Source: Candidatus Bathyarchaeota archaeon (GTDB lineage Archaea; Thermoproteota; Bathyarchaeia; Bathyarchaeales; Bathycorpusculaceae). Taken from it: a DNA stretch of 64,000 nt. The notes beneath the pieces were generated by a model. That model did no database searches and was not told the origin of the DNA. It saw only the letters and a list, made by a program, of their open reading frames with translations. The stretch is from positions 416,001 through 480,000 of the forward strand of contig CAVYES010000005.1 of assembly GCA_963767735.1 (NCBI GenBank), read 5' to 3'. Made by a program: the position numbers and the translations under genes. Shown piece by piece: positions 2,458-43,459 of the stretch. Position 1 is the first letter of the stretch. Every line of letters begins with the position of its first letter.

Positions 2458-5340
2458 TTACTCGAGGTATATCGCTGGCTGGCTGGGCATTGCCATTATT
2501 GATCGGTGCTTGGGGTCATAGAGTGCTTGGTCACATTCACTGTACACCGATACTTCAGCGTTGAAGCGCATCTTCAGAAAATCAAGGGCACTGTCTATGA
2601 TTTCTTTCTCGTTTACAGCCTTAATTTTTAGCATGTTTGCTTTGCGTTCGCTTGGCAGCTTTGTTAACGCCTTCATTATTCTTGGAACCAAGCTTGCGGT
2701 GTCCTTCATGTGCGGCTTTAGGTCCTTGTCAGCGGCAAATTCTTTCATTAACTCGTTAATCTTGGCCTCGCCAGCCACGCTTTTGTCTAAAATTTTTAGG
2801 TAAACCTGCCATTTCCATGGTGAAGCTGTGTAGTAGCATATGCGTTTGGGTGTAATCTTCATGGCTTTTAGGATATTGGCAGTGTCCGCCATGACGTCAA
2901 CTATTAGGTTCTCATGCTCTTCAGCAGCTACATCAACTTTTGAGGCATCAAACAGTGGCCATTTTGCAACGCTGATGAAGTCTGCCTCGCCTGTTTGGCT
3001 CCAAAGCTCCTCGCAAATGAAAGGAGCGAAAGGTGCAAGCATTTTAAGCCAAATTTTCACTGCTTCGAGCAGCGCTTTAGCGTCAGTGTTGCCTTTTCGT
3101 TGGATATACCAGCGCAGGTCATTCCAAGTTTCAAACAAGGCAATCTGCAGGGCGGTTCGGGTTTTAAGCTCATCTAAGCTGGCTGTAACATCCTTAATTC
3201 TTTGTTGAAGTTTACTTTGTAACCATCGTTCAAGTGTGGTGTCTTCTTCTTTTTTGGCTGAAGAGATTACTGCGCTTGCTAAACTGCATAATGCTTCAAA
3301 CTTGCCTTGCAAGTCACCTACGTTTTCCCCTCGCCAATCCGGGTCATCCATGCCCTCTGCACCCAGCAGAAGTGCGCTGCGGGTGGCGTCGGCGCCATAC
3401 TTTTCAACTGCTCCCTTCATTGTTATGAAGTTGCCTTTGCTCTTGTGCATTTGTTTGCCTTCAACCATGAGCATACCGTTTACTCCTATGGCTTTGGGCC
3501 AGTGTTCAGGCGGAAACAGGGCTGCATGGTGGAATATGCAGAAGGTCAAATGGTTTGGTACAAGTTCTTTAGCTGAGTTTCTTAGGTCAAAGGGGTACCA
3601 GTACAAGAATTCATTCCGCATCGCTTCAAGCAAAGAAACGTTTATTCTGGCTGCCTTTTGGAGTTCGCTGGAGTTGCCTTTGCCATAGAAGATATAGTCG
3701 AAAACTTCGGGCGTCAAAGCTTCGGGCTCTATATTGTTCTGTTTAATGTGTTTGTTTATGGTGTAGAACGCCATGTAAATTGTCGAATCGCTTAATGTCT
3801 CGATTATCCAGCCTATTCCCCACGGCAACGGCGTTCCGAAACCTGTGGTTCTGGCGCAAGCCCACTCTCTTAGCCAGTCTATAACAGTATAGAACGATTG
3901 TTTGGCCGAGTCAGGATAAATCGTCATTTGCGCCACGGCTTCCTTAGCTTTCGCCTTCCATTGTTGGTCGGAGTAGTTGAGGAACCACTGGTCAGAAAGT
4001 ATCTTTACTATGCACTGGGTCATGCATCGGCAAATCACTTGCTCGGGCAAATCGTACATGCTATCGGCGACGCCGAGCTTACGGAAATCAGCTATAAGCG
4101 TGTCTTTTATGTCTCTGACGGATTTTCCGGCGTAAGGTCCACAATTCTGCTTTAGCACTCCGCTGTGAAATTCTTTTTTGTATAATTGTTTTGTAGCCTC
4201 ATCTGCTTTCGCATCGTTCTGGTCTTTAATGCTCATTTGCTGAACTATTTCAACGGCTGGGTACTCGCCGAAACCCTCGACATTAATTATTGAGATAGGC
4301 TTAATCCGCTTAACGACTTCAGGGTCAACACCAAAATCCTTGAGAACCTCGGGCTTTTCCTGCAAATCCTTGAGTGCCAGCCAATCATAGGGTGCATGGG
4401 CGGGTACGCTGTAGACGACTCCTGTGGCAGTCTTCGGGTCAACAAACCAGCCTGGCAAAATAGGAAACTTGCCCTTCGTTATTGGGTTTTCGAAAATTTT
4501 GCCAATAAGCTCTTTACCTTTAAATGAGCGTTTTACTTGGATTTTCTTTTCTTGTTCTTTGAGTTTCTCAGCTGCTTCTTGGCTGATTATCCAGTTTTCG
4601 CCGTTGACGGATGCTTCGACGTATGTTACGTCAGGATTTATCCACATGTTTGTTATGCCGTAGATTGTTTCGGGACGAAACGTTGCCGCTGGCAAAAACG
4701 TTTTCTCGTCAAGTTTGTATTTTATTAACGTGTATTCTTCTGGAGTTACGCCTTCGCCGACTTGGCGGTCATGGTCTCCTGTTGGGCTTTGGTCTTTTGG
4801 GCACCACACTACAGGATGCGTTCCCCTTGTGACGTAGCCTTTTTCTTTGAGGTTTTTGTATTGCCACTCAATAAATTTCTGGAAAGTCGGCATTACAGTG
4901 GTGAATTCACGGCGCCAATCAACGGAGAAACCTATGCTTTTAACCGCTAAACGTCCTTCATTAGTATAATACTGAGCCATATACAAGGGATCAACAAACT
5001 TTTTGAGCTCTGACTCTGGAACGCCGTCAACTTCACGAAGGACCCGAATGAAGGCTTCGTCGCCTCTTGCTACACGTTGGCTGGCTCCCAGAAGCGGTTG
5101 CCCCGTCCAATGCCAAGCCCAAGGCCAAAGCACATTGTAACCTTGCATCCTCTTGAATCTAGCATAAGCGTCAACACGTGAAGCCGTGAATGTGTGCCCC
5201 ACATGCAGTGGTCCGTTCATGTATGGGAATGGAAAAGTCACCATTATCTTCTTTCTTTTCGGGTCTGGGTCAGCCTCAAAAATATGCGCGTTTTCCCATT
5301 TGGCTTGCCATTTCTGCTCGATTTGCTTGGTTTGGCTCAT
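2458..5340 (-). CDS. leuS: Leucine--tRNA ligase (archaeal type)
   Basis: FPYMNGPLHVGH (HIGH), QMHKSKGN (KMSKS-like), ATFRPET, editing domain, 960 aa. Confidence 0.97.
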   Translation of the reverse strand: MSQTKQIEQKWQAKWENAHIFEADPDPKRKKIMVTFPFPYMNGPLHVGHTFTASRVDAYARFKRMQGYNVLWPWAWHWTGQPLLGASQRVARGDEAFIRVLREVDGVPESELKKFVDPLYMAQYYTNEGRLAVKSIGFSVDWRREFTTVMPTFQKFIEWQYKNLKEKGYVTRGTHPVVWCPKDQSPTGDHDRQVGEGVTPEEYTLIKYKLDEKTFLPAATFRPETIYGITNMWINPDVTYVEASVNGENWIISQEAAEKLKEQEKKIQVKRSFKGKELIGKIFENPITKGKFPILPGWFVDPKTATGVVYSVPAHAPYDWLALKDLQEKPEVLKDFGVDPEVVKRIKPISIINVEGFGEYPAVEIVQQMSIKDQNDAKADEATKQLYKKEFHSGVLKQNCGPYAGKSVRDIKDTLIADFRKLGVADSMYDLPEQVICRCMTQCIVKILSDQWFLNYSDQQWKAKAKEAVAQMTIYPDSAKQSFYTVIDWLREWACARTTGFGTPLPWGIGWIIETLSDSTIYMAFYTINKHIKQNNIEPEALTPEVFDYIFYGKGNSSELQKAARINVSLLEAMRNEFLYWYPFDLRNSAKELVPNHLTFCIFHHAALFPPEHWPKAIGVNGMLMVEGKQMHKSKGNFITMKGAVEKYGADATRSALLLGAEGMDDPDWRGENVGDLQGKFEALCSLASAVISSAKKEEDTTLERWLQSKLQQRIKDVTASLDELKTRTALQIALFETWNDLRWYIQRKGNTDAKALLEAVKIWLKMLAPFAPFICEELWSQTGEADFISVAKWPLFDASKVDVAAEEHENLIVDVMADTANILKAMKITPKRICYYTASPWKWQVYLKILDKSVAGEAKINELMKEFAADKDLKPHMKDTASLVPRIMKALTKLPSERKANMLKIKAVNEKEIIDSALDFLKMRFNAEVSVYSECDQALYDPKHRSIMAMPSQPAIYLE

Positions 5341-5504
5341 GAAACTTCTGATTAAGCTATTGGCTATTAAGAGTTTTGCTTATGTGCGCTCTGTCTCTAA
5401 TTTTGGTGTGGTGATGGTTTGCGCAGAATAGTGTGCGTGCAGTAATTTTGTGTTCAGGCTGTTTTGGGTTGCTTTTTTCGTTTAGGGCTCAATTAGTTTG
5501 CAGG

Positions 5505-7915: not shown

Positions 7916-8443
7916 TTACTCGTAGAATCTTGGCCTAACTTTCTTACTGTACTCTTCCATAGCTTTGGCTCTTTCTTCTTCCTCTTTGTCTTTGGCTTCG
8001 GCCTCCTTTTCGGCGGGTTGAGCAACGGATTTATCAAAATCTCCATCGACATTTTTGTACGAGCCTTCAAGAGCAGTTACGTAAATTTTAAAATCGCCGA
8101 TCGCGCTTTCAGCCTGCCTATGCGAAGCATGCACCTGCTCAGAAACAAGAATTATCAAGTCTAACATACTCCGAAGAGTTTGCTTATCCGATTCTGGTGC
8201 ATGGTCGTAGTATCGTTGGAAGACACTTAAAAGATCCATAAACATTTCATCTATTTCTCTGGTCTCCCGTCTAAACACATTTTCAGAAGTAAGCGATTTA
8301 GTTTTCAGGTAAAGCATGAGATTCTTAAGAATAGCTGTATCACAACTGGACAAAACAAAAACCTCAGTTAAACTATGTTTAGTGACTGAATTATATTTTT
8401 TGGTATTGCGTTCAAAAGCATTAGCAGAGACTTTTTTTCTCAA
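7916..8443 (-). CDS. Hypothetical protein
   Basis: 175-aa ORF, helical, charged C-terminus; true start uncertain. Confidence 0.65.
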   Translation of the reverse strand: MRKKVSANAFERNTKKYNSVTKHSLTEVFVLSSCDTAILKNLMLYLKTKSLTSENVFRRETREIDEMFMDLLSVFQRYYDHAPESDKQTLRSMLDLIILVSEQVHASHRQAESAIGDFKIYVTALEGSYKNVDGDFDKSVAQPAEKEAEAKDKEEEERAKAMEEYSKKVRPRFYE

Positions 8444-26205: not shown

Positions 26206-26391
26206 CCTGAAGCACAGAATTAGATTGCATATTTAATTTCTTAGCTGTATAAGGCTGTCGGCCAATTCTGATTAACCATCTTCCAAAAATTAAGCCCCCT
26301 TCAGGAAGGGTTTCTTTATTGTGCTCGAAGCGAAGGAAAAACGTATTACAATCATGAAGTTTGGTCGTGTTCGCGTTTTTTCTTAGTAGCT

Positions 26392-34326: not shown

Positions 34327-34597
34327 AATTCTGAAATCCTGCAGTAATCAGATCGTCAAGGAAGAAAAAGCTCGAATGTGACGTTAGTAATTTCGCTTCG
34401 TCACGCAGCCAACATAGCCAATTCGAGACGAGATTTGGCTTTGGTTTTCTTGGCTTTCTCTTCTTTGGGCTCTGCAAGTTTCGCAAGGTCCGATGGTACC
34501 ATATTTGGTAAGCAACACATAGTCTTTCACAAAAATAATACTGTGAATTATTCTTAAGTATATGTGGTTGTCATAATGGAGCCACACCTTTGTTCAC

Positions 34598-34610
34598 ATT
34601 AAATTTTAAT
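34598..34610 (+). repeat. 13-bp flanking direct repeat ATTAAATTTTAAT (putative target-site duplication, left)
   Basis: Identical in the same orientation at 43080-43092. Confidence 0.8.
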
Positions 34611-34895
34611 CAAAAAAAAAATAATTGCTTTGTTGATTCCTCATGGAACGATACGAGCATGACCCCAAGAGCCCTCAGGGTTCTGCGCTTCGGAATGACG
34701 AACCATTGCCACTTCGCGCATGTGTTTTTTTTGATTCAGGGCATGCCAGAAAGAACACTGAGCACGTCAAGAAAGGTAGTATATCCTCAGTTCATTAGTA
34801 ATTACTCTCACTTATCATACACTACCTTTGTTTAATTATCATACACTACCTTTGTTCATAACGCCTAACTAAAGAAATTAGGGATATGTGAGGCT
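34611..34895 (+). repeat. Left terminal inverted repeat (285 bp)
   Basis: Reverse complement of 42795-43079; both yield the same shadow peptide in the ORF track. Confidence 0.95.
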
Positions 34896-35649
34896 ATTAA
34901 GGAAGGCTGACTTGTCGTTGAGTTCTGGGCAAGTCTTAAATCTGAATAGCAAAGAAAGTAGGATAGAGGAAATAAAAACGGAATCAGAAAAAAAGCAATC
35001 AGAAAAAGGCAACTGGGAAAAAACAGCTATTATTATTAGCATAATAAGCTTAATCGTTTCAACGAGTTTGACAGCCGTTATAGCATATACCAGTTATCAA
35101 GTAATAGAAAAGGCTGATAATATAGAAAATAACAGCCTTTTGCTACAAATAATGCAAAATGGCTATACCCCAAAAATTTCTGTGAGTAATCCCCAAATTG
35201 TTGTTCTTCAACAAGAAAATAGCTTATTTGATAATTGGACTTCACCCACTGAATGCTATGGGTGGGTAAATGGTTCAATTAATATCATGACTCCTCAAGT
35301 TGGAACAGTATCCATTAGCATAAGTAATTTCTCAATAAGCGACGATTATTCATACCTCTTACCAGAAAAAACAAATTTAACGATTGTTGAGCCAGTTCCT
35401 TCTTATTATCCCCAAGGTATCAATGATGTATATAATGTAGGTGAGGGTTTAACTGGATACAATTTTAGCCTTCCAATAGAAGCTTCATTTTATCCAAACC
35501 CTGAAAAACTACCTGTCAATACTGACTCTATTTTTCCTATCGGATATCTGCTTCTTAAAGCAAATTTTATCCCTCAAGCGACAAACTTCATACCACAAAC
35601 AGAATATTTTTCGGTAAATATCTTTGTTGACGTAAAGAATTATCCTTGA
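34888..35649 (+). CDS. Membrane-anchored extracellular protein (element cargo)
   Basis: N-terminal TM, beta-rich domain with many NxS/T sequons; true start probably near 34978. Confidence 0.7.
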   Translation: MRLLRKADLSLSSGQVLNLNSKESRIEEIKTESEKKQSEKGNWEKTAIIISIISLIVSTSLTAVIAYTSYQVIEKADNIENNSLLLQIMQNGYTPKISVSNPQIVVLQQENSLFDNWTSPTECYGWVNGSINIMTPQVGTVSISISNFSISDDYSYLLPEKTNLTIVEPVPSYYPQGINDVYNVGEGLTGYNFSLPIEASFYPNPEKLPVNTDSIFPIGYLLLKANFIPQATNFIPQTEYFSVNIFVDVKNYP

Positions 35650-35854
35650 GAGATTCCAGAGTGCATTAAACGGTTAGGGCTATTACCGAGTACATTCAAG
35701 GGTTAGCGCGCTAAGAAAGGCTTGCGATTCGAGGATTCCATTCCTTTATTTCTTCTCGCAAATATTTGGCGTGTGCGTATTGTTTTCAAATTCATAAACC
35801 ATAATTCCATGTGACTTTCAAATTGTACTTTGAAGATAGCGAAGAAGGACTGAG

Positions 35855-36133
35855 CTTAAAACGAAACCCGAGTTATATACTTGCGTTAGTTGCGGAAAGA
35901 ATCATTTAAAATTATCAGAGATTGTTTGGATGAAAGAATATGAAGATGGAGACATTGACTTATCAACTGTTAGATGTGTGTCATGCCATGCGCGATTCTT
36001 GCCTACTACTTTGGTAGGTAAACTTCCTGAAGATGTTTTAAAAACTATAGACAAACCCCTCAAGAAATATGGCAAGAGAGTCAACCGTAATTACGACAGA
36101 AGAACCGTTAGACGAGCGCTGAAGAAGTCGTAA
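35855..36133 (+). CDS. Small zinc-finger protein with two CVSC motifs and basic tail
   Basis: Frame open upstream of ATG 35930: YTCVSCGKNH...RCVSCHARF; start codon unclear. Confidence 0.5.
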   Translation, partial: LKTKPELYTCVSCGKNHLKLSEIVWMKEYEDGDIDLSTVRCVSCHARFLPTTLVGKLPEDVLKTIDKPLKKYGKRVNRNYDRRTVRRALKKS

Positions 36134-36144
36134 TAGCGCGCTAT

Positions 36145-37185
36145 TCAGGAAGGGACTAACGTAGCTATCCTCGGATTCCAATCAGGTATTTCCTCTCGCA
36201 AGTATTTAGCAAACAGCAAGGCTTCTTCAGCTATCAGCGTCTCTACCTCTTGTCTTTTCCCTACTTTAATCCTCGGGATTTCTACTTTGCTCCTGAAGAA
36301 AAGGCTTAAACTTTTCAGGAACTCGTCATTTTTCGCTCCGTTCAAATATTGTCTCTTGCCTTTTCTATTATTTGAGAAGGCTTCCTCTCTAAGCACGAAG
36401 TCCTTTTCTTTAAGGATTGATGCGTACTGAATAACGAAGTCGTCTACCAAAAATCTGTACAGCTCCTCAAAGTCACACACTAAGGAGGGCTTACCAAACT
36501 GCAAGCTGTGCAGAAAGCCCAAGTATGGTTCAAGCTTAGCTTTGATTAGCGCGGTATGAACGCGCCAAGATAAAACCGTGTAGGCGAGGTCAAGCAGATT
36601 GTTCGTTTTGTCATACGCTTTAAACGTCGTTCTGTTCTTAGGTCTCATGTACTCAGGGAAAAGCTCGAATATTTGCTGGAAGTATTGAGAAGCGCAATGC
36701 CCTTCGATGTTTGTTAAGGTATGCCTGAGGGTACTCAATGATTTAGCTTCTGCGTTCTTTACCTGCTCGTAACAAAAAGGGTCGAGCCTGTGCAAACCGT
36801 ATTTGCTGAGCAGGCTATCCTGTCCTCTTAGCTTGCCAATAAGAAACGCTTTCGCTATGTCAAACGACTTACCACTGGTAAAGGCTTGATACTGAGACAG
36901 CCGATTAAGGACATGAGAAGAATTGTCCAAGCCTACCAGAACGCCTACCGCGTGACCTCTCGCGGTTTCTACAATAAGGTCTATTCCAAAATAACAGCAA
37001 GTAACCAGCGCTCCGCTGCTGACCGCGTTACCTGAACGGATTTCTATTTCACCTATCGTGTTCATGTTTAGCGGGTATTTTCTTTTGTTGCCTTTGAAAT
37101 CCCGAACGAACAGGCAACCTTCTTCTCTGCCCAAAAAATAGCCCGAGCTATCTAAATTTAATTTCTCAGTTTTCGTTCCTTTCAC
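36145..37185 (-). CDS. cas1: Stand-alone Cas1 integrase (casposase-like)
   Basis: NIEG, NNLLDLAY, LEPYLGFLH, LVCDFEELYR.LVD motifs; GGAGGAGG ribosome-binding site. Confidence 0.93.
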   Translation of the reverse strand: MKGTKTEKLNLDSSGYFLGREEGCLFVRDFKGNKRKYPLNMNTIGEIEIRSGNAVSSGALVTCCYFGIDLIVETARGHAVGVLVGLDNSSHVLNRLSQYQAFTSGKSFDIAKAFLIGKLRGQDSLLSKYGLHRLDPFCYEQVKNAEAKSLSTLRHTLTNIEGHCASQYFQQIFELFPEYMRPKNRTTFKAYDKTNNLLDLAYTVLSWRVHTALIKAKLEPYLGFLHSLQFGKPSLVCDFEELYRFLVDDFVIQYASILKEKDFVLREEAFSNNRKGKRQYLNGAKNDEFLKSLSLFFRSKVEIPRIKVGKRQEVETLIAEEALLFAKYLREEIPDWNPRIATLVPS

Positions 37186-37622
37186 GCTCTATCCTCCTCC
37201 TTAATAGGGTATATAGTAAAGGGGAGCTATTTTAGCTTTAAACGTCAAAAGGGCTTATTTTTAGCCATATTAGCCGTTTTAGGCGCAATATTGTGGCTAT
37301 TTAGGAGCTCGTAGCCTTAAGCTACGAAAAGGCTTTATATAGTATATAAGGAGGGTTGGACTTTTTAAACTATTTTTAAGCTCTAAACGTAAAATGACTT
37401 AAAATTCTTCCCCTATTAGCTATATTCATGTTTAAAATAGGCTTATTAGGATAAATTAAGCCCGATTTGTAGACTTCATGGATTTTGAAAAAAGATTTTT
37501 TAACTTGTTTATTTAAAAACGCGGGTATATACTACGAATTTAAGTATTAACGTATAAAAGCCTAAAATAGAACGAACCGAACGTAGAGGTTATAGATAGC
37601 CCGAATTTAGGAGATTAGGGAT

Positions 37623-38493
37623 ATGTCAAAGACAATAGGGCTTGAACCAATTGAAGAAATTCCTGAGATATTCCCTGTACTCAGGGTTTGTCAAGAACAA
37701 GAAAAGACCCGTATCGGCTTTGATTATGGCGCATCCAGAGAGGGCTAAGAGCACGGAGACTCTCAAGTTCGAAGGTCTTGGGATACTTTACATGACCGAT
37801 TTGACCCACTATGGTCTTATGGAAGAGCTAAAAGACATGCCAGCCGACAAAAGAGAAGCGTTGCATCATCTCGTAATACCTGATTTGGAGAAACTCCGAA
37901 CAAGAGGAAAGAGCGTCAGGGAAGAACTTATGTCTTGCTTTAGGGACTTGACCGAGGAGGGCTTGGGAAGAATGCATACGGGAAAGATAAACGTAAACTT
38001 TGACCCTCCCGTTGTTATGGGCGTTATAGCCTGCACCACTCCAGAAGACATAGGCGACAGGAGAAGCATACTCAGGAACGTAACATTCCTGTCCAGATTT
38101 ATTCCCTTTACTTACGATTACTCAGACCAAATGAAGATAGACATACTTAATTTCGTTGAAAAAGAGGATGAATTGACCGAAAGAAAAGACCAAATAATCG
38201 GAAAGGTGGCAAGAGTCGAATTGCCAGAGAGTTTGGCGGGCGAATTGACAACCTATGCAATTTATCTCGCACATAGAATACAGAAATTCGCTTCTACAAA
38301 ATCTGTAGACGGGAAAGACAGCCTGTTTGGAGTTAGGGCGAAAGAGAACCTTATGACGCTGTTAAAGAGCATAGCGTTGTACAACGGAAACAGAACGGTG
38401 GAGAAGGAAGACTTGAAAGAACTAATGCACCTCTACAAGTACATGAACTTCAATTTTAGGGAGATGGATGACAGAATATTCGGAGGTGAGTGA
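37623..38493 (+). CDS. AAA+ (MCM-like) ATPase with divergent Walker motifs; probable frameshift near 5' end
   Basis: AHPERAKS, HLVIPD, IACTT, LSRF Arg finger, GVR sensor 2, TVEKEDL. Confidence 0.7.
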
Positions 38494-38893
38494 GATTGGA
38501 CACAATTCCTGGGCGCGAATTTATGGGGATATTCATGCGAACAAGTATTACATAGACATGAAAGGCGCATACACTCGTGAGGAAATTAATAGAAGGGTCG
38601 AAGCTGCAGAAAAAGCTGCGCTATACCTCGGTCGTCGAGGAGACCTCGACCCTCAAACTGTCCGACAAAGGATAGCCCGTCTGGCGAAATTAAGAAAGGC
38701 TGACATCGGAAGCCGCGCCATCTCGGAAGCGCGAAGGCATCCTGACGGAATGGTAAACCTGACGCTGCATTACGGGCGTGATAAAGCCTTCGGCATGAGA
38801 ATTGACCGCATGCAACGCCTTAGGAGATTGGAAAAGACGCGAAGAGCGGAAAGGATGGAAAGGATGCGGAAAGCAAGGTTCGACAGAGGTTGA
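38468..38893 (+). CDS. Arg-rich basic hypothetical protein
   Basis: Overlaps both neighbours; strongly basic C-terminus. Confidence 0.65.
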   Translation: MTEYSEVSEIGHNSWARIYGDIHANKYYIDMKGAYTREEINRRVEAAEKAALYLGRRGDLDPQTVRQRIARLAKLRKADIGSRAISEARRHPDGMVNLTLHYGRDKAFGMRIDRMQRLRRLEKTRRAERMERMRKARFDRG

Positions 38894-39198
38894 AAGAAAT
38901 GGTTGACGTAAGCACGCTCTTAATTTCTATGGTAACGGGATTATTCGCTGGAATAGGAACGACTGTCGGAACTTACTTGGCAAACAAGCATCTCGTCGAG
39001 AACATGAAGAAATTAGAGAAGGCTGCAGTCGAAGCCATAAGAGCACCGTTGTTCCAAGCAGAACGCAACGCGGAACCCTTATACCCTAAAGGGTATTCCC
39101 AAAGACGCATCAGGAATACCCGTAGTAAATTCCCTTATCACGTTACTCGCCCAGAAAAGCGCGGTCATCCCCGTAAGGTTATTGAACACACTCGATAG
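38890..39198 (+). CDS. Small protein with N-terminal Gly-rich TM helix
   Basis: LLISMVTGLFAGIGTTVGTYLA. Confidence 0.65.
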   Translation: MKEMVDVSTLLISMVTGLFAGIGTTVGTYLANKHLVENMKKLEKAAVEAIRAPLFQAERNAEPLYPKGYSQRRIRNTRSKFPYHVTRPEKRGHPRKVIEHTR

Positions 39199-39224
39199 AG
39201 TACGCTTTAGGTTGGTGTCAAGTT

Positions 39225-39383
39225 TTGGACTTATTCGGAAGTGCTATAGCGATAGCGCTTATCCTTGTATTTTTCATCATGGCGCTTGGGTATATCGGCT
39301 TTGATAGAGTAGGGCAAGCCCTTCGCTCGCTCTGGGAAGCCTTTAGTGCAATATGGGTTATTCTTTTTGGAACATCCCCGTAA
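39225..39383 (+). CDS. 52-aa membrane protein (not in ORF track)
   Basis: GGTG site + TTG; MDLFGSAIAIALILVFFIMALGYIGFDRVGQALRSLWEAFSAIWVILFGTSP. Confidence 0.65.
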   Translation: MDLFGSAIAIALILVFFIMALGYIGFDRVGQALRSLWEAFSAIWVILFGTSP

Positions 39384-39399
39384 AGGCAGATGCGAGATT

Positions 39400-39534
39400 T
39401 TGCTTAAAAGGTTGGAACATACTCGGAAGAGTATAGCCGAATGGGGAAAACGAAATGAAATAGAAAGCCTGATTGTAGTCGTCGTACCCGTCGCGGTTTT
39501 TATCGTGGTAATTTTCTTGGCGAAATGGTTGTGA
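39400..39534 (+). CDS. 44-aa membrane protein with C-terminal TM helix
   Basis: MLKRLEHTRKSIAEWGKRNEIESLIVVVVPVAVFIVVIFLAKWL. Confidence 0.6.
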   Translation: MLKRLEHTRKSIAEWGKRNEIESLIVVVVPVAVFIVVIFLAKWL

Positions 39535-39540
39535 GTCCTT

Positions 39541-39684
39541 ATGGACATATCCAGCATATTCGGTACATTACTCGGGGCAGGCATTCTTGTTGCTTTCATA
39601 ATCTACGTTATGGTGAAGATAGGAATTTTGGGCAGGTTCGTTCGCGCTGTTAGCTCGCTCTTGCATTTAATATTCGGGGATTAA
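39541..39684 (+). CDS. 47-aa membrane protein (not in ORF track)
   Basis: MDISSIFGTLLGAGILVAFIIYVMVKIGILGRFVRAVSSLLHLIFGD. Confidence 0.65.
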   Translation: MDISSIFGTLLGAGILVAFIIYVMVKIGILGRFVRAVSSLLHLIFGD

Positions 39685-39686
39685 CA

Positions 39687-39959
39687 ATGCCACAGAAATA
39701 CTGGATAAAAGAAAAACTTGGATGTAATGAGCGGTGGGATTGTTCTCGCTGCGCAAAAATGCTGTCTTGTCTGGATAAGGCTATGGGAAAGCCAGATTGC
39801 GAAGAGCCCGAAGCAGAAGTAGAAACGAAGCCTAAAGAAACAACCCCAAAGAATAAACCCAGAAAGGAACCTGACAGCGATTTTAAAAAGTCACGAGGTT
39901 GCAAACGGGTTATTAAATGCAATTGCTGTAGGGAATTTTTCGTTAACTGCTTTCCTTAA
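39687..39959 (+). CDS. Small Cys-rich, charged protein
   Basis: C..CSRC..C cluster; starts 2 bp after the previous stop. Confidence 0.55.
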   Translation: MPQKYWIKEKLGCNERWDCSRCAKMLSCLDKAMGKPDCEEPEAEVETKPKETTPKNKPRKEPDSDFKKSRGCKRVIKCNCCREFFVNCFP

Positions 39960-40130
39960 TGAATGAGGAGGTGATAAGGATGGCAAAAGCACCAAAAAGA
40001 AACCCGAAAAGAAACATGTAAGTGAACCAAGCGAAAGCTCCTCAAAGGCTTAGGGTTTTCCATTCGGGAATACCCAAAGAACTTTTGGGAATACCCTGTA
40101 GGGTAAAACCCCAAGGCTCAGAATGAAGGC

Positions 40131-40213
40131 GCTCCTCACCTAAGCGCGTACTCAGAGTAGCCATTGCTGCCAGCTATTCGGTACTGCGCAGTCGCGCTTG
40201 GAGCGTGAGGAGC
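40131..40213. other. Long imperfect stem-loop
   Basis: Nested pairings GCTCCTCAC/GTGAGGAGC, AAGCGCG/CGCGCTT, GAGTAGC/GCTATTC. Confidence 0.65.
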
Positions 40214-40377
40214 CGAGGTTTCGCTTAGGTTTTTCCACATCCTCGTTGAAAGATGCGGCTCAAGGTTTTCTCACCTCGTCTTTCAAGCCTTCCTGAAATG
40301 CCCCTTACTGAGAAATCTGTGTCCCTCACTACATATAACACTAAGAAGTCTTAAATCTGAAATAATACTATGACTAA

Positions 40378-40728
40378 ATGGTGAATGTTATGAGTAGAAT
40401 ACCAGAATTTGAAATAAAGGATAGCGAAAACTTCAAAATCATTTACTCTACAGGTGTATTTGGCGGTCTTGCGCCAAATGACGGAAGAATGGTTTTGTAT
40501 ATAGATTTGCTGAAAACAAAACCAGTTAGAGGAGAACCTGGAAAGGAAGAACTTGACAAAATTGTTAGGGAAAGGGAAGTTGAAATTCACCTGTCACCAG
40601 CAACTTGGAAAAGTATTGCAAAATGGATGACCGCGCATGTAGAGCAACTTGAAAAAGTTTATGGAAAAATACCTGAAGAACCAAAAAGTATCATTCCACA
40701 AACACAATCTGGAAATCCTATCGTTTAG
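40378..40728 (+). CDS. DUF3467-like protein (cargo)
   Basis: IYSTGVFGG...EIHLSPATWKSIAKWM pattern; TATA-like TTAAAT at 40351. Confidence 0.65.
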   Translation: MVNVMSRIPEFEIKDSENFKIIYSTGVFGGLAPNDGRMVLYIDLLKTKPVRGEPGKEELDKIVREREVEIHLSPATWKSIAKWMTAHVEQLEKVYGKIPEEPKSIIPQTQSGNPIV

Positions 40729-40738
40729 ATGGTCTTTT

Positions 40739-41299
40739 TTGAGTTTCAAAGTTTATATTTCTTCTGACTGCAACGACACGTTCTTTGTTAACAATGTACT
40801 TGGAGTTAACAATGTACTTGGAGCGATTCAAGAGAAAAGTGAAGAAATTCGCAACGCTATAGGCATAGAAATCCATCCAATCTATCCACCAAGACAAGCC
40901 ACAACTGGGATGACTGTTGAAGATAAGATAGCCCAAATAAGAGATTCGGCTTTAGTTATTATGAACATTACTCCAAGAATCATTGCAACTGAGTATGTTG
41001 TTAATTCTGGTGTTCTTATAGAATATGGGATTGTATTAGGTTTAGGCATAGCTGATAATCTCTGCATCCTATGTAATCAAGAATTTGAAAGAGCCCGACT
41101 GTCGCCGATTTTTCATGGTCATGACATTTAACAATTCATACAGACTACTGAAGGAACAGAATTAAAAAACATCATAAAAAATATTCTAAGTAATCACATC
41201 GCCAAGATTGTCCAAAGAAGCAGCCAACTTGCTCAAAGTGATAGGATTAAGCAAGATTTCATAGAAGAGCAAATAAGGTCAGCGAGCAACGCCACATAA
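40739..41299 (+). pseudogene. Nucleoside 2-deoxyribosyltransferase/TIR-like protein interrupted by an in-frame TAA at 41129
   Basis: KVYISS..IRDSALVIMNIT..NSGVLIEYGI; same frame stays open 56 codons past the stop. Confidence 0.6.
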
Positions 41300-41516
41300 C
41301 GGGAGTCATAAAAAGTCAGATTGTTGGGATTCTTGGATTCCTGTCTTTCCGTTCGTTTATCGAATACTTCGCAAACAACAGAGCCTCTTCACTAAGGCTT
41401 CACCATACCATTTTTGTTCTGCTTACGCAGAACCTCTTTTCGGGTCTACCCTTCTCCCGCCCTTACTGCACTACACGCGCTAAAGGGTACGCCTTCCTGA
41501 ACAACGCTTTTAGCGT

Positions 41517-42062
41517 TTACTGAAAAACCAGAGGTAGTATTTTTGCGCCTTGTGGTATTACAAGTGGTTTTACGTCATTGATGATGTTAGCTGTCTTAGC
41601 CTCTATAGGAGTTAAAGTCTTTGCTTCGAGAAACATCTCTTTGACTTTATCCGAATCAAGTTTCGAGTTTGCGACAATAATGTCAGTTATTAGTTTTTGG
41701 TCTCGTTCAATGCTCAGTAAGCCCTCTTTGATTTGTTTTTCATCAAATCTCGCTTGCTGTAATATGTTCAAAGCTACGCCATGAAATAGAAATGATGAGT
41801 TTGGAACAGCATATCTTTCGGTACCAGCTAATAATACAATATTGGCGATTGAGTCAACTATCCCGATATTGAACGTTATAGTTTTTATTGGAAGCGACTT
41901 GATGTAGTTGAATAATGTAATTCCACTGTTTGTCGCTCCTCCAGGTGAAGACAGCATTAGACAAACCTCTTTTTCACCTATGTTTACTTGTTCTGCCAAG
42001 ACACTCATTAGAGTTTGAGAAGTCTTACCATCGATTCCTGCGTGGAAATTAATAAACAACAT
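41517..42062 (-). CDS. ClpP-like serine protease (cargo)
   Basis: LSSPGG, VDSIA, FLFHG, LTPIEA. Confidence 0.85.
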   Translation of the reverse strand: MLFINFHAGIDGKTSQTLMSVLAEQVNIGEKEVCLMLSSPGGATNSGITLFNYIKSLPIKTITFNIGIVDSIANIVLLAGTERYAVPNSSFLFHGVALNILQQARFDEKQIKEGLLSIERDQKLITDIIVANSKLDSDKVKEMFLEAKTLTPIEAKTANIINDVKPLVIPQGAKILPLVFQ

Positions 42063-42190
42063 TGGATTAGCTCCTTATTCTACTTTGAATTGCCTTTGCA
42101 TATAAGTTTATGCACTACCCGATACCGTAAAGTTACCCATAACAAACCTTAAGCCAACTTCTTCTAATACCGTCTTTCGAGGGATTAAGG

Positions 42191-42700
42191 ATGCCCAATG
42201 AAGAAATCAACAAAACAAAACAGAAAATTATAGAATGGTTAAAGGAAGAGGGATTCTCGGCAGAAGAAAAACAAGACCCAAATGCTTACTTTAATATTCA
42301 AGCAACAAAAGGCAGAATAAATGTGAACATTATCCAAAACCCACCTTTCAATGATAGTATCTTCATTGGTGGAAACATCGCCGTTGCTCCAGAACAACAA
42401 GCGCTTCTGAAATCAAGGAGTCGAGATAAAAGGGAAGATTTCATTTGGGATTTACAAATGAGCCTCGCAGCGAACAATGAATTAGGCGATTTTGCGCTAA
42501 AACCCAATCCACCTGACGATATACAAACCATTTTTGTTTCCTCTCGGAGAATCTACTATGATGAACTGACTAAAGGGAAACTCTTTACTTCAATCAATAT
42601 TGTCATGAAAAACATCATATTGACTATTTGGAAACTGCAAAAATTTGTTGGAATGCATATGCCCAAAACGCCTGCAACAAAGCAAGATTATTCTACGTAA
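42191..42700 (+). CDS. DUF2299-like hypothetical protein (cargo)
   Basis: IIEWLKEEGF, FIWDLQ, IYYDELTK pattern. Confidence 0.65.
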   Translation: MPNEEINKTKQKIIEWLKEEGFSAEEKQDPNAYFNIQATKGRINVNIIQNPPFNDSIFIGGNIAVAPEQQALLKSRSRDKREDFIWDLQMSLAANNELGDFALKPNPPDDIQTIFVSSRRIYYDELTKGKLFTSINIVMKNIILTIWKLQKFVGMHMPKTPATKQDYST

Positions 42701-42794
42701 AGTAATGCCCTTTCTTTCTTAATTGATAGAATACCTGAAGGTCTTCTTCTTTCTTTAGGTGGTACACATTCTTCAGGTTGCTGAATGCCTGAAC

Positions 42795-43079
42795 AGCCTC
42801 ACATATCCCTAATTTCTTTAGTTAGGCGTTATGAACAAAGGTAGTGTATGATAATTAAACAAAGGTAGTGTATGATAAGTGAGAGTAATTACTAATGAAC
42901 TGAGGATATACTACCTTTCTTGACGTGCTCAGTGTTCTTTCTGGCATGCCCTGAATCAAAAAAAACACATGCGCGAAGTGGCAATGGTTCGTCATTCCGA
43001 AGCGCAGAACCCTGAGGGCTCTTGGGGTCATGCTCGTATCGTTCCATGAGGAATCAACAAAGCAATTATTTTTTTTTTG
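42795..43079 (-). repeat. Right terminal inverted repeat (285 bp)
   Basis: Reverse complement of 34611-34895. Confidence 0.95.
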
Positions 43080-43092
43080 ATTAAATTTTAAT
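43080..43092 (+). repeat. 13-bp flanking direct repeat ATTAAATTTTAAT (right)
   Basis: Identical to 34598-34610. Confidence 0.8.
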
Positions 43093-43459
43093 CCAACCAA
43101 CCAACGAAAAAGTAAGGAAAAGTTAGACCTTTTTGAAAAGGTTGCAGGTGTTACTCAGTTCGGCATAGGCATATCACATAAGGTTAAGGTATAGTATGTG
43201 TAGTATCGGAATCGAGTAAACACTCAAAACTATGGAAAAAATAAGAAAAAATAAAGGAAAAAGAGATAAGGGTTCTGGTAACTTCGTTGGATAGTTTTTC
43301 GGTGTAAACTGTCTTGGGATATTTTTCTCGGTGTTAAGTTTCATGGGACACTTGTTTATGTGTTAATTTATATATATATATATAGATTATTAAGAGAAGC
43401 TATATTAGCTCCCCAATGGATACTCTCTGCTTCCGAACATAAGTAGAGGTGAAAAAAGA

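Follow-up and report, generated by a model that had tools for sequence, protein, structure and literature searches.

The DNA examined here is a 64,000-nucleotide (nt) window from a Candidatus Bathyarchaeota archaeon (contig CAVYES010000005.1 of assembly GCA_963767735.1, positions 416,001 to 480,000 of the forward strand). The source genome comprises 3,044,997 base pairs (bp; 3.04 Mb) at 43% G+C. Two terminal inverted repeats (TIRs) of 305 nt, 99% identical, bound an 8.5-kb element at window positions 34598-43092 (repeats at 34598-34902 and 42788-43092). Between them lie an intact gene for a Cas1 homologue (casposase) and a set of cargo genes, an arrangement that recalls the transposons known as casposons. 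A short word recurs close to the TIRs and at internal borders. The first-pass annotation took it for an insertion signal duplicated by Cas1 as cargo was added stepwise, in the manner of spacer acquisition or integrons. On re-reading, every copy was found where it had been placed, those on the left facing one way and those on the right the other, and all the copies named for the array fall inside the element. The features that bear on the nature of this word are listed below (aa, amino acids; no strand is assigned to the TIRs).

34598..34902: left TIR, 305 nt, 99% complementary to 42788-43092
34893..34906, minus strand: motif copy b1, at the inward end of the left TIR; last codons and vestigial stop of cas1 (plus-strand TTA, 34897-34899)
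35711..35790, minus strand: cas1 3′ remnant A, aa ~323-343 and a TAG stop, open frame of 24 aa
36132..36153, minus strand: 14-nt palindrome AATAGCGCGCTATT and motif copy b3, in which plus-strand TCA (36145-36147) corresponds to the TGA stop of cas1
36145..37185, minus strand: cas1 (casposase), intact, 346 aa; PF01867, E 2.2e-46; TIGR00287, E 2.4e-44
40287..40297, plus strand: motif copy b4, where G+C changes from core to module R1; bridged unchanged by contigs of read runs X1, X2 and X7
41319..41432, minus strand: cas1 3′ remnant C, 76-79% identical over 67-75 nt to the cas1 ends of loci L015/L043 and L018/L047
41491..41504, plus strand: motif copy b5, CCTTCCTGAACAAC, identical in 14 of 14 nt to the subterminal word of a solo TIR on contig C4
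42787..43092: right TIR, with motif copy b6 (GCCTGAACAGCC, 3 nt missing) at its inner edge

On the plus strand, the left-hand copies are CTATTAAGGAAGG at 34894-34906 and CTATTCAGGAAGG at 36141-36153. The right-hand copies are GCCTTCCTGAA, present at 40287-40297 and at 41491-41501, and the shorter CCTGAACA is found at 41496 and 42788. Left copies read TTCAGGAAGG-like on this strand, right copies CCTTCCTGAA. Positions 36144-36153 and 40288-40297 form a 10-bp inverted pair, which had been read as the ends of a distinct core (36144-40297). The pair is present, but simple arithmetic gives many such pairs by chance within 7.9 kb.

The copy at 36141-36153 consists of the last codons of cas1, its stop codon and the first bases of the palindrome AATAGCGCGCTATT. 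At the other left-hand position, TIR homology ends within the motif, at 34902/42788. In the metagenomic locus L081, whose cas1 is 60% identical, the TAA stop (1393-1395) coincides with the first base of TIR homology, and the match to the inner TIR that begins at this stop extends over 69 nt at 81% identity. The left TIR edge of the present element is therefore a vestigial gene end. The element's own cas1 tail aligns to this edge with a z-score of 4.7, and none of 300 shuffles aligned as well. Contig C4 of this genome carries a solo TIR, 73-75% identical and unpaired, in which CCTTCCTGAACAAC is retained at the equivalent subterminal position; the promoter box that stands at the left end of this element follows it there as well. 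Gene-end position, L081, C4 and the tail alignment together point to the motif as the casposase gene end at an old TIR junction. Since the repeat is inverted, each inner TIR edge has an outward-facing copy. For the left-hand copies the identification is settled: that at 36141 is the cas1 gene end, that at 34894 the TIR edge.

A palindrome accompanies the gene end. Of the six copies of TAGCGCGCTA in 3.04 Mb, two are in the element and each lies just 3′ of a cas1 stop, the second at 35704. Tail and palindrome also follow the cas1 stop in L084/L115, at merely 54% protein identity, which hints at some constraint; most relatives have a different cas1 tail and no palindrome. A search with the TIR DNA across the family recovered three partial homologues (G310, G295 and G297), whose inner edges abut different DNA; the G310 homologue is cut by a contig end 25 nt inside.

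Two further fragments of the gene lie inside the element. A six-frame Cas1 search of the genome itself detected two extra C-terminal pieces there, both on the minus strand: fragment A at 35717-35779 (aa 323-343, 71% identity, E 0.0035) and fragment C at 41319-41432 (aa 306-343, one in-frame TGA, E 0.025). Remnant A ends in b2 (35712-35722), a degenerate copy of the motif, and the palindrome TAGCGCGCTA comes next (35704-35713). It matches the cas1 ends of L061/L062 in 51 of 61 nt (84%), among them the TAG stop and all but one of the final 27 nt (26 of 27), and the element's own cas1 in 36 of 47 (77%). When 103 distinct cas1 ends were set against the resident gene, 8 scored higher than it for remnant A and 57 for remnant C. 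The remnants are pieces of genes from other casposase lineages. Because both are closer to these than to the resident cas1, they are not target duplications. The view that the word is an insertion signal copied by Cas1 is thus not supported: it is the cas1 stop region, remnants A and C are foreign, and on the right, conservation among relatives gives out 1.4 kb before b4.

The reading we prefer, with somewhat more belief than doubt, is that the motif is the cas1 end at the TIR junction and that the element is a mosaic with casposon-end relics at its module borders. The following history is proposed. (i) Ancestrally, the cas1 of this TIR lineage would have run directly into the TIR, as it still does in L081. 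(ii) Several casposons at one locus may have recombined or nested, with later deletion. (iii) DNA would collect at the cas1/TIR junction because extra DNA there breaks neither a gene nor a transposition signal; stacking at this point would then reflect tolerance and not a dedicated insertion machine. (iv) The conserved core (cas1 and genes for a 283-aa and a 141-aa protein) would in this way have come to be set apart from the TIRs by four low-G+C modules. Those beginning at 34931 and 40346 carry host-type promoter boxes at their start. (v) Leftovers at the borders would comprise two 5′-truncated foreign cas1 tails, a GC-rich palindrome after each cas1 stop and the short junction words. (vi) The resulting composite is now enclosed by one nearly identical TIR pair. 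Internal fragments of transposase genes from other lineages, one mark of a mosaic or nested transposon, are present as remnants A and C. In sum, the copies mostly look like scars of related transposons merging, and not like a cassette array built by Cas1.

Counting the word does not settle its nature. It was picked only after being seen, and the enrichment figures are post hoc. The left 13-mer with one degenerate base has two matches against 0.24 expected, a number reached by 2 of 100 shuffles. GCCTTCCTGAA with at most one mismatch has eight matches in the window (four within the element) against 1.62 expected, and none of 100 shuffles reaches eight. Genome-wide, CCTTCCTGAA has 13 copies in 3,044,997 bp, three of them in the 8.5-kb element where 0.036 would be expected, and CTATT[AC]AGGAAGG has two, both in the element. 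Among 300 Markov shuffles of the interior, 63% hold a non-low-complexity 10-mer that occurs at least three times (0.96 such words on average), and 50% hold one that reaches four copies when those with one mismatch are counted. Since the word was chosen post hoc and shuffles yield comparable repeats, statistics alone do not decide; what the copies belong to does. The enrichment over genome background that the first-pass annotation had proposed as a check holds for CCTTCCTGAA, but it does not beat the shuffles, and CCTGAACA taken alone is ordinary (138 in the genome, 0.39 expected in the element). The similar word that had been reported outside the element, near 26300, is indeed there and sits in a small palindrome of its own, CCCTTC..GAAGGG; no casposon feature was noticed beside it, in a neighbourhood that was not specifically searched.

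Several observations weigh against the mosaic account. Internal TIR remnants of other copies, the companion mark of nesting, are lacking: in 16 comparisons of the DNA after internal motif copies, none reached a z-score of 3, the best being b5 against C4 (z 2.4, equalled by 11 of 300 shuffles). TIR-like sequence had been suspected after b4 and b5, and it was not significant in the shuffle test, so the sequence does not show whole casposons simply nested. A cas1 tail at the TIR edge is not general either. Among 22 edges of 11 other elements only the right edge of L087 comes close (7 of 300 shuffles), so that a rule making the cas1 tail part of the TIR edge is not supported on those elements. The similarity of b1 to b3 is limited to 14 nt (13 of 14 identical), which is the size of a casposon target duplication, and the grouping of remnant A with L061 is based on 61 nt. 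Copies b4 (40287) and b5 (41491) comprise only 11 nt and are tied to the others by position alone, in a setting where 63% of shuffles give a comparable 10-mer; whether these right-hand copies are gene-end relics or coincidence is uncertain. At the element's own ends, no direct repeat common to the flanks 34558-34597 and 43093-43132 was found that could be a target-site duplication. Finally, no homologous element with the same modules was found among 71 related loci or in family DNA and cargo searches, which leaves no breakpoint to compare.

Sequencing reads add a little. The best runs, which may include the source sample, hold at most one-third of the sampled words in short, low-depth contigs, and uncovered parts are uninformative. 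Read contigs bridge b4 in X1, X2 and X7 (three runs, two studies) and b5 in X1, in each case as in the window. Within this limited coverage, no alternative junction at any motif is listed among the read contigs. Apparent joints had other causes: an 'opposite strands' joint in X5, 34891>42726, is the TIR itself, and two in X7, 34957>35671 and 35706>34931 (28 nt on the shorter side), can be traced to further copies of an intergenic repeat together with the promoter box.

The same copies may be read in other ways. The junction word could be a preferred target of the casposase, at which one or more modules were inserted with 11-14 bp duplicated each time, an account we think unlikely. Direct repeats do flank 1.2-kb inserts (34893-34906/36140-36153, 13 of 14 identical; 40287/41491, 11 of 11), and a third pair, 41491/42787, agrees in 13 of 14 when a 3-nt gap is left out of account. 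Orientation is uniform among the copies on each side, and a duplication here would restore the cas1 stop codon, as happens with elements that insert at the 3′ ends of genes. The repeats fit the size of published casposon duplications (median 15 bp; PMC4046053), and for that reason one or two of the insertions may have been made by the casposase. As a general explanation the account meets several obstacles: the middle copy on the left belongs to a foreign cas1 tail of at least 60 nt and is no short duplication, the inserted segments have neither inverted ends nor significant TIR-like sequence, and the foreign gene tails go unexplained. Duplication is absent at the element's own ends, and in the flanks of relatives its length is inconsistent (4, 5 and 9 nt, judged by eye in L043, L053 and L051). 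The repeated-word null is not beaten, and neither relatives nor reads lend support. In a bolder form, the gene end and GC palindrome would be a true attachment site where the casposase inserts modules and pieces of casposons, with an 11-14-bp duplication, and the element would be a growing cassette platform; this we hold to be a long shot.

Chance is another reading. Only the two left copies would be related, and the words at 40287 and 41491 and the 8-mer at 42788 would be coincidental or parts of local hairpins. The frequency of comparable words in shuffles and of CCTGAACA in the genome speaks for this, and local structure is present as well: b4 forms the 3′ arm of a 180-nt stretch that folds strongly, and the loop of a small hairpin, CGCTAAAG...CTTTTAGCG, contains b5. 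On the other side, if the word is regarded as set by the cas1 stop, it has 10 copies elsewhere in 3.04 Mb, from which about 0.026 would be expected in the remaining 7.9 kb; two are seen (Poisson ~3e-4). Moreover, b4 and b5 are oriented like the right TIR edge and lie in non-coding DNA at module borders, and b5 has 14 nt in common with the C4 solo TIR. We judge coincidence distinctly unlikely. The lowest probability of all goes to the word and the palindrome TAGCGCGCTA as a putative working site, bound by the casposase or a regulator or acting as a bidirectional terminator, and kept where modules need it. Tail and palindrome after the cas1 stop of the distant L084/L115, two motif-like words 20 nt apart in the C4 solo TIR and the rarity of the palindrome in the genome would agree with such a role. 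Most relatives, in contrast, have another tail and no palindrome, and the 21-nt repeats of the TIRs are better candidates for casposase binding. These repeats are not enriched outside the TIRs (16 matches against 14.3 expected), and their core ACTACCTTTSTT was rejected as a mark of module borders, where it shows no enrichment.

The mosaic account is set in a wider family. Close Cas1 homologues were found in 31 of 201 sampled genomes of the order, and the set of related loci numbers 71 (3 genomic, 68 metagenomic). The element belongs to a Bathyarchaeia family of TIR-bounded Cas1 elements without a family B DNA polymerase (PolB) that share the core of cas1 and the 283-aa and 141-aa protein genes. 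Several complete, TIR-bounded relatives without polymerase are only 3.4-6.4 kb long (L043, L045, L048, L050-L053, L057 and L084). Tails of cas1 truncated at the 5′ end are frequent in the order. Of 49 Cas1 hit rows 17 are partial, 16 of which extend to aa 340 or beyond, and no fragment in the 49 rows is N-terminal only, except two cut by contig ends. Fourteen partial hits were fetched; 12 are true fragments and two are frameshifted full genes. A terminal-palindrome word lies 0.1-1.4 kb downstream of six of the 12, and extra cas1 tails adjoin intact elements in L045, L052, L067, L083, L084 and L114. In L114, two cas1 3′ fragments (5219-5490 and 8120-8394) form an outward-facing 275-nt inverted repeat (85%) with 2.6 kb between them; the pair looks like a small non-autonomous element with terminal repeats made of casposase gene ends. 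A second casposon is present on the contig of the element itself (G000:C5:28674-39238, L007), with a Cas1 of 50% identity and no cargo in common. Its outer inverted repeat spans 158 nt; further in are two paired terminal-palindrome words (8266 and 13540 in L007 numbering), and it has three paralogous open reading frames (ORFs) of 330-540 aa.

Casposons are the system to which this element invites comparison. According to PMC4779613 and PMC6563490, they too place a Cas1 homologue between long TIRs, carry element-specific cargo and occur as related elements with dead remnants in one genome; tandem casposons, decay and solo TIRs are documented there for Methanosarcina and Nitrosopumilus. Here, by contrast, the relics are the 3′ ends of cas1 and not TIRs, and a single TIR pair encloses them. 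Of four casposon characters tested, the element has Cas1 and TIRs and lacks the polymerase and the target duplication; no polymerase match was found when 13 element ORFs were scanned against Pfam and 10 against NCBIfam. The definition given in PMC4046053 is based on PolB in all casposons. Combining casposon with Bathyarchaeia in a literature search returned no paper, and with Bathyarchaeota a review. No description of polymerase-less casposons turned up in the search listing, nor was one of internal cas1-tail relics found in the casposon literature, whose main texts were covered in part and without supplementary tables.

The integron, one of the two models proposed earlier, likewise stacks functionally unrelated genes beside the gene for a recombinase, and a short word recurs at their borders. 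Its attC sites are imperfect palindromes of 57-141 bp. No attC-like sites are present in the element: the copies have 10-14 nt and two orientations, and only b4 lies in a significant fold. No IntI-type tyrosine recombinase domain was found among the element ORFs (Pfam/NCBIfam), the modules carry promoter-like boxes of their own, and the recurring word is the end of the recombinase gene itself. Comparison with CRISPR spacer acquisition is invited by the shared Cas1-family enzyme and, as with casposon target duplications, by flanking repeats of 11-14 nt, the size of a casposon duplication. The CRISPR adaptation module is held to descend from casposons. Units here, however, measure 1.2-4.1 kb and not ~30 bp, the repeats (10-14 nt) are irregular, and one copy is a fragment of a foreign gene. 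The scan of 13 ORFs gave no match to Cas2, and no explicit search for repeat arrays was made. Arrays at the 3′ ends of tRNA or protein genes (attL/attR) offer a further parallel, with remnants in a single orientation, foreign DNA after each and the intact gene at one end. The likeness is one of layout only, as the gene concerned here is the element's own recombinase and no such integrase is present.

To our knowledge, little is known of how casposons take up and exchange genes. In this polymerase-less family of Bathyarchaeia, cargo appears to pile up between the casposase gene and the TIR, and the borders retain datable scraps of foreign cas1 genes. The junction is thus a concrete place at which to ask whether such elements grow passively, by recombination and tolerance, or through their casposase, and 5′-truncated cas1 tails could serve as a simple marker of past casposon activity in archaeal genomes. 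If growth is passive, the element is a case of ordinary transposon decay in an unusual family. If the junction is an attachment site, it would be a living intermediate between transposon integration and the building of repeat-spacer arrays.

The cargo and the remaining features of the element are as follows.

34888..35649, plus strand: module L1 cargo ORF, 253 aa, true start uncertain; no family match; G+C 0.32-0.35
34931..34946, plus strand: promoter-like box AAGTCTTAAATCTGAA ahead of the first cargo gene, again at 40346-40361
35657..35706, plus strand: copy of a genome-wide intergenic repeat, with 88-97% matches on contigs C4, C5, C6 and C8
35930..36133, plus strand: module L2 cargo ORF, 67 aa, convergent with cas1; no family match
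37642..38893, plus strand: core partners, 283-aa and 141-aa proteins, divergent from cas1; found in relatives by tblastn
40118..40297, plus strand: strongly folding stretch whose basal stem pairs a motif-like word (40118-40131) with b4
40346..41131, plus strand: module R1, with promoter-like box, DUF3467-like ORF (40378-40728; assignment below the Pfam cut-off) and 160-aa ORF
41517..42700, no single strand: module R2, with ClpP-like ORF 41517-42062 (minus; PF00574, E 3.6e-16) and DUF2299 ORF 42191-42700 (plus; PF10061, E 9.5e-24)

Base composition separates the modules from the core. Apart from the divergent promoter region, G+C is 0.43-0.50 over the core (36.15-40.3 kb) and 0.32-0.39 in the four outer stretches, with steps at ~36.1 and ~40.3 kb. 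Across the 71 related loci, the recurring genes are those of the core: cas1, with the gene for the 283-aa protein in 13 loci and that for the 141-aa protein in 15, and the divergent arrangement is constant. The ten non-core ORFs have no tblastn match in any locus of this set. Homologues of the DUF3467 and DUF2299 cargo occur in 2 and 11 other genomes, respectively, and none lies within 1.5 kb of cas1, the TIR word or the motif. DNA-level conservation among relatives extends from the cas1 stop (36153-36173) to ~38,850, and the intergenic region 37323-37569 is 79% identical to L061. On the left the border of conservation coincides with the motif, trivially, because the motif is the gene end; on the right it falls 1.4 kb short of the copy at 40287. 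The stepwise growth proposed in the first-pass annotation survives in part. The element is modular and was assembled in several steps, as the G+C steps, the absence of the outer proteins from all 71 loci and the left conservation stop indicate, and some borders lie at the motif. In most relatives at 60-68% identity, a conserved small ORF with an MRIRVP/MKIRIP-like start follows ~10 nt past the cas1 stop (L058, L061-L080 and others); this element is without it.

The 16-nt direct repeat AAGTCTTAAATCTGAA (34931 and 40346) was considered as a shared module scar and rejected. It stands at both module starts because a genome-wide promoter-like box precedes ORFs: about 30 copies with at most two mismatches occur in the genome, nearly all of them 20-40 nt upstream of ORF starts. 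The consensus is GATAAGTCTTAAATCTG(A/C)A, and to judge from sequence and placement the box is probably the organism's strong promoter, of the BRE/TATA type (BRE, transcription factor B recognition element). The repeat at 35657-35706 is likewise not casposon-specific, its copies being intergenic and genome-wide. It has ~45 nt and occurs at gene ends (C5:170822, C4:330961, C6:474259 and C8:41143); in some copies the promoter box follows after 23 nt, in the style of a terminator-plus-promoter spacer.

The stretch around b4 is unusually structured. The fold of 40040-40300 has a z-score of -3.67, and none of 200 shuffles folds as well; no Rfam family match and no homologues were found for the hairpin 40118-40297. 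Nearby, GGGAATACCC or its complement has four copies in two pairs ~1 kb apart (39079-39135 and 40052-40108), with five matches counted against 1.8 expected (3 of 100 shuffles reach this number). From their sequence and spacing, these could be iterons or operator sites of the element.

The left TIR contains two 21-nt direct repeats (34812 and 34836) and one inverted variant (34769). Its inner end at 34864-34889 (AGAAATTAGGGATATGT) resembles 37601-37626, just upstream of the start of the 283-aa gene (81% over 26 nt), and the two may share a regulatory or ribosome-binding word. An 18-nt TIR word had three matches in viral contigs without further homology, which were put down to chance. The termini of the family (34598-34611 and 43079-43092 in the window) bear a short AT palindrome of the TTAAATTTTAA or TAAAGTTTTA type, and in many relatives runs of CCCAAAC or CAACAA beside it give a telomere-like look. 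Outside the element, the sequence on the right (43093-43217) is similar to the outer part of the long inverted repeat in L057 (63%, E 9e-5), and the left flank has no counterpart. The true right end may lie further out, or a second casposon relic may adjoin the element. Relatives of this flanking sequence are also found at C6:331218-331283 and C4:136408-136459. Within the cargo, the 160-aa ORF of module R1 holds an exact 19-nt repeat at 40787-40823, start-to-start 18 nt, an in-frame tandem duplication.

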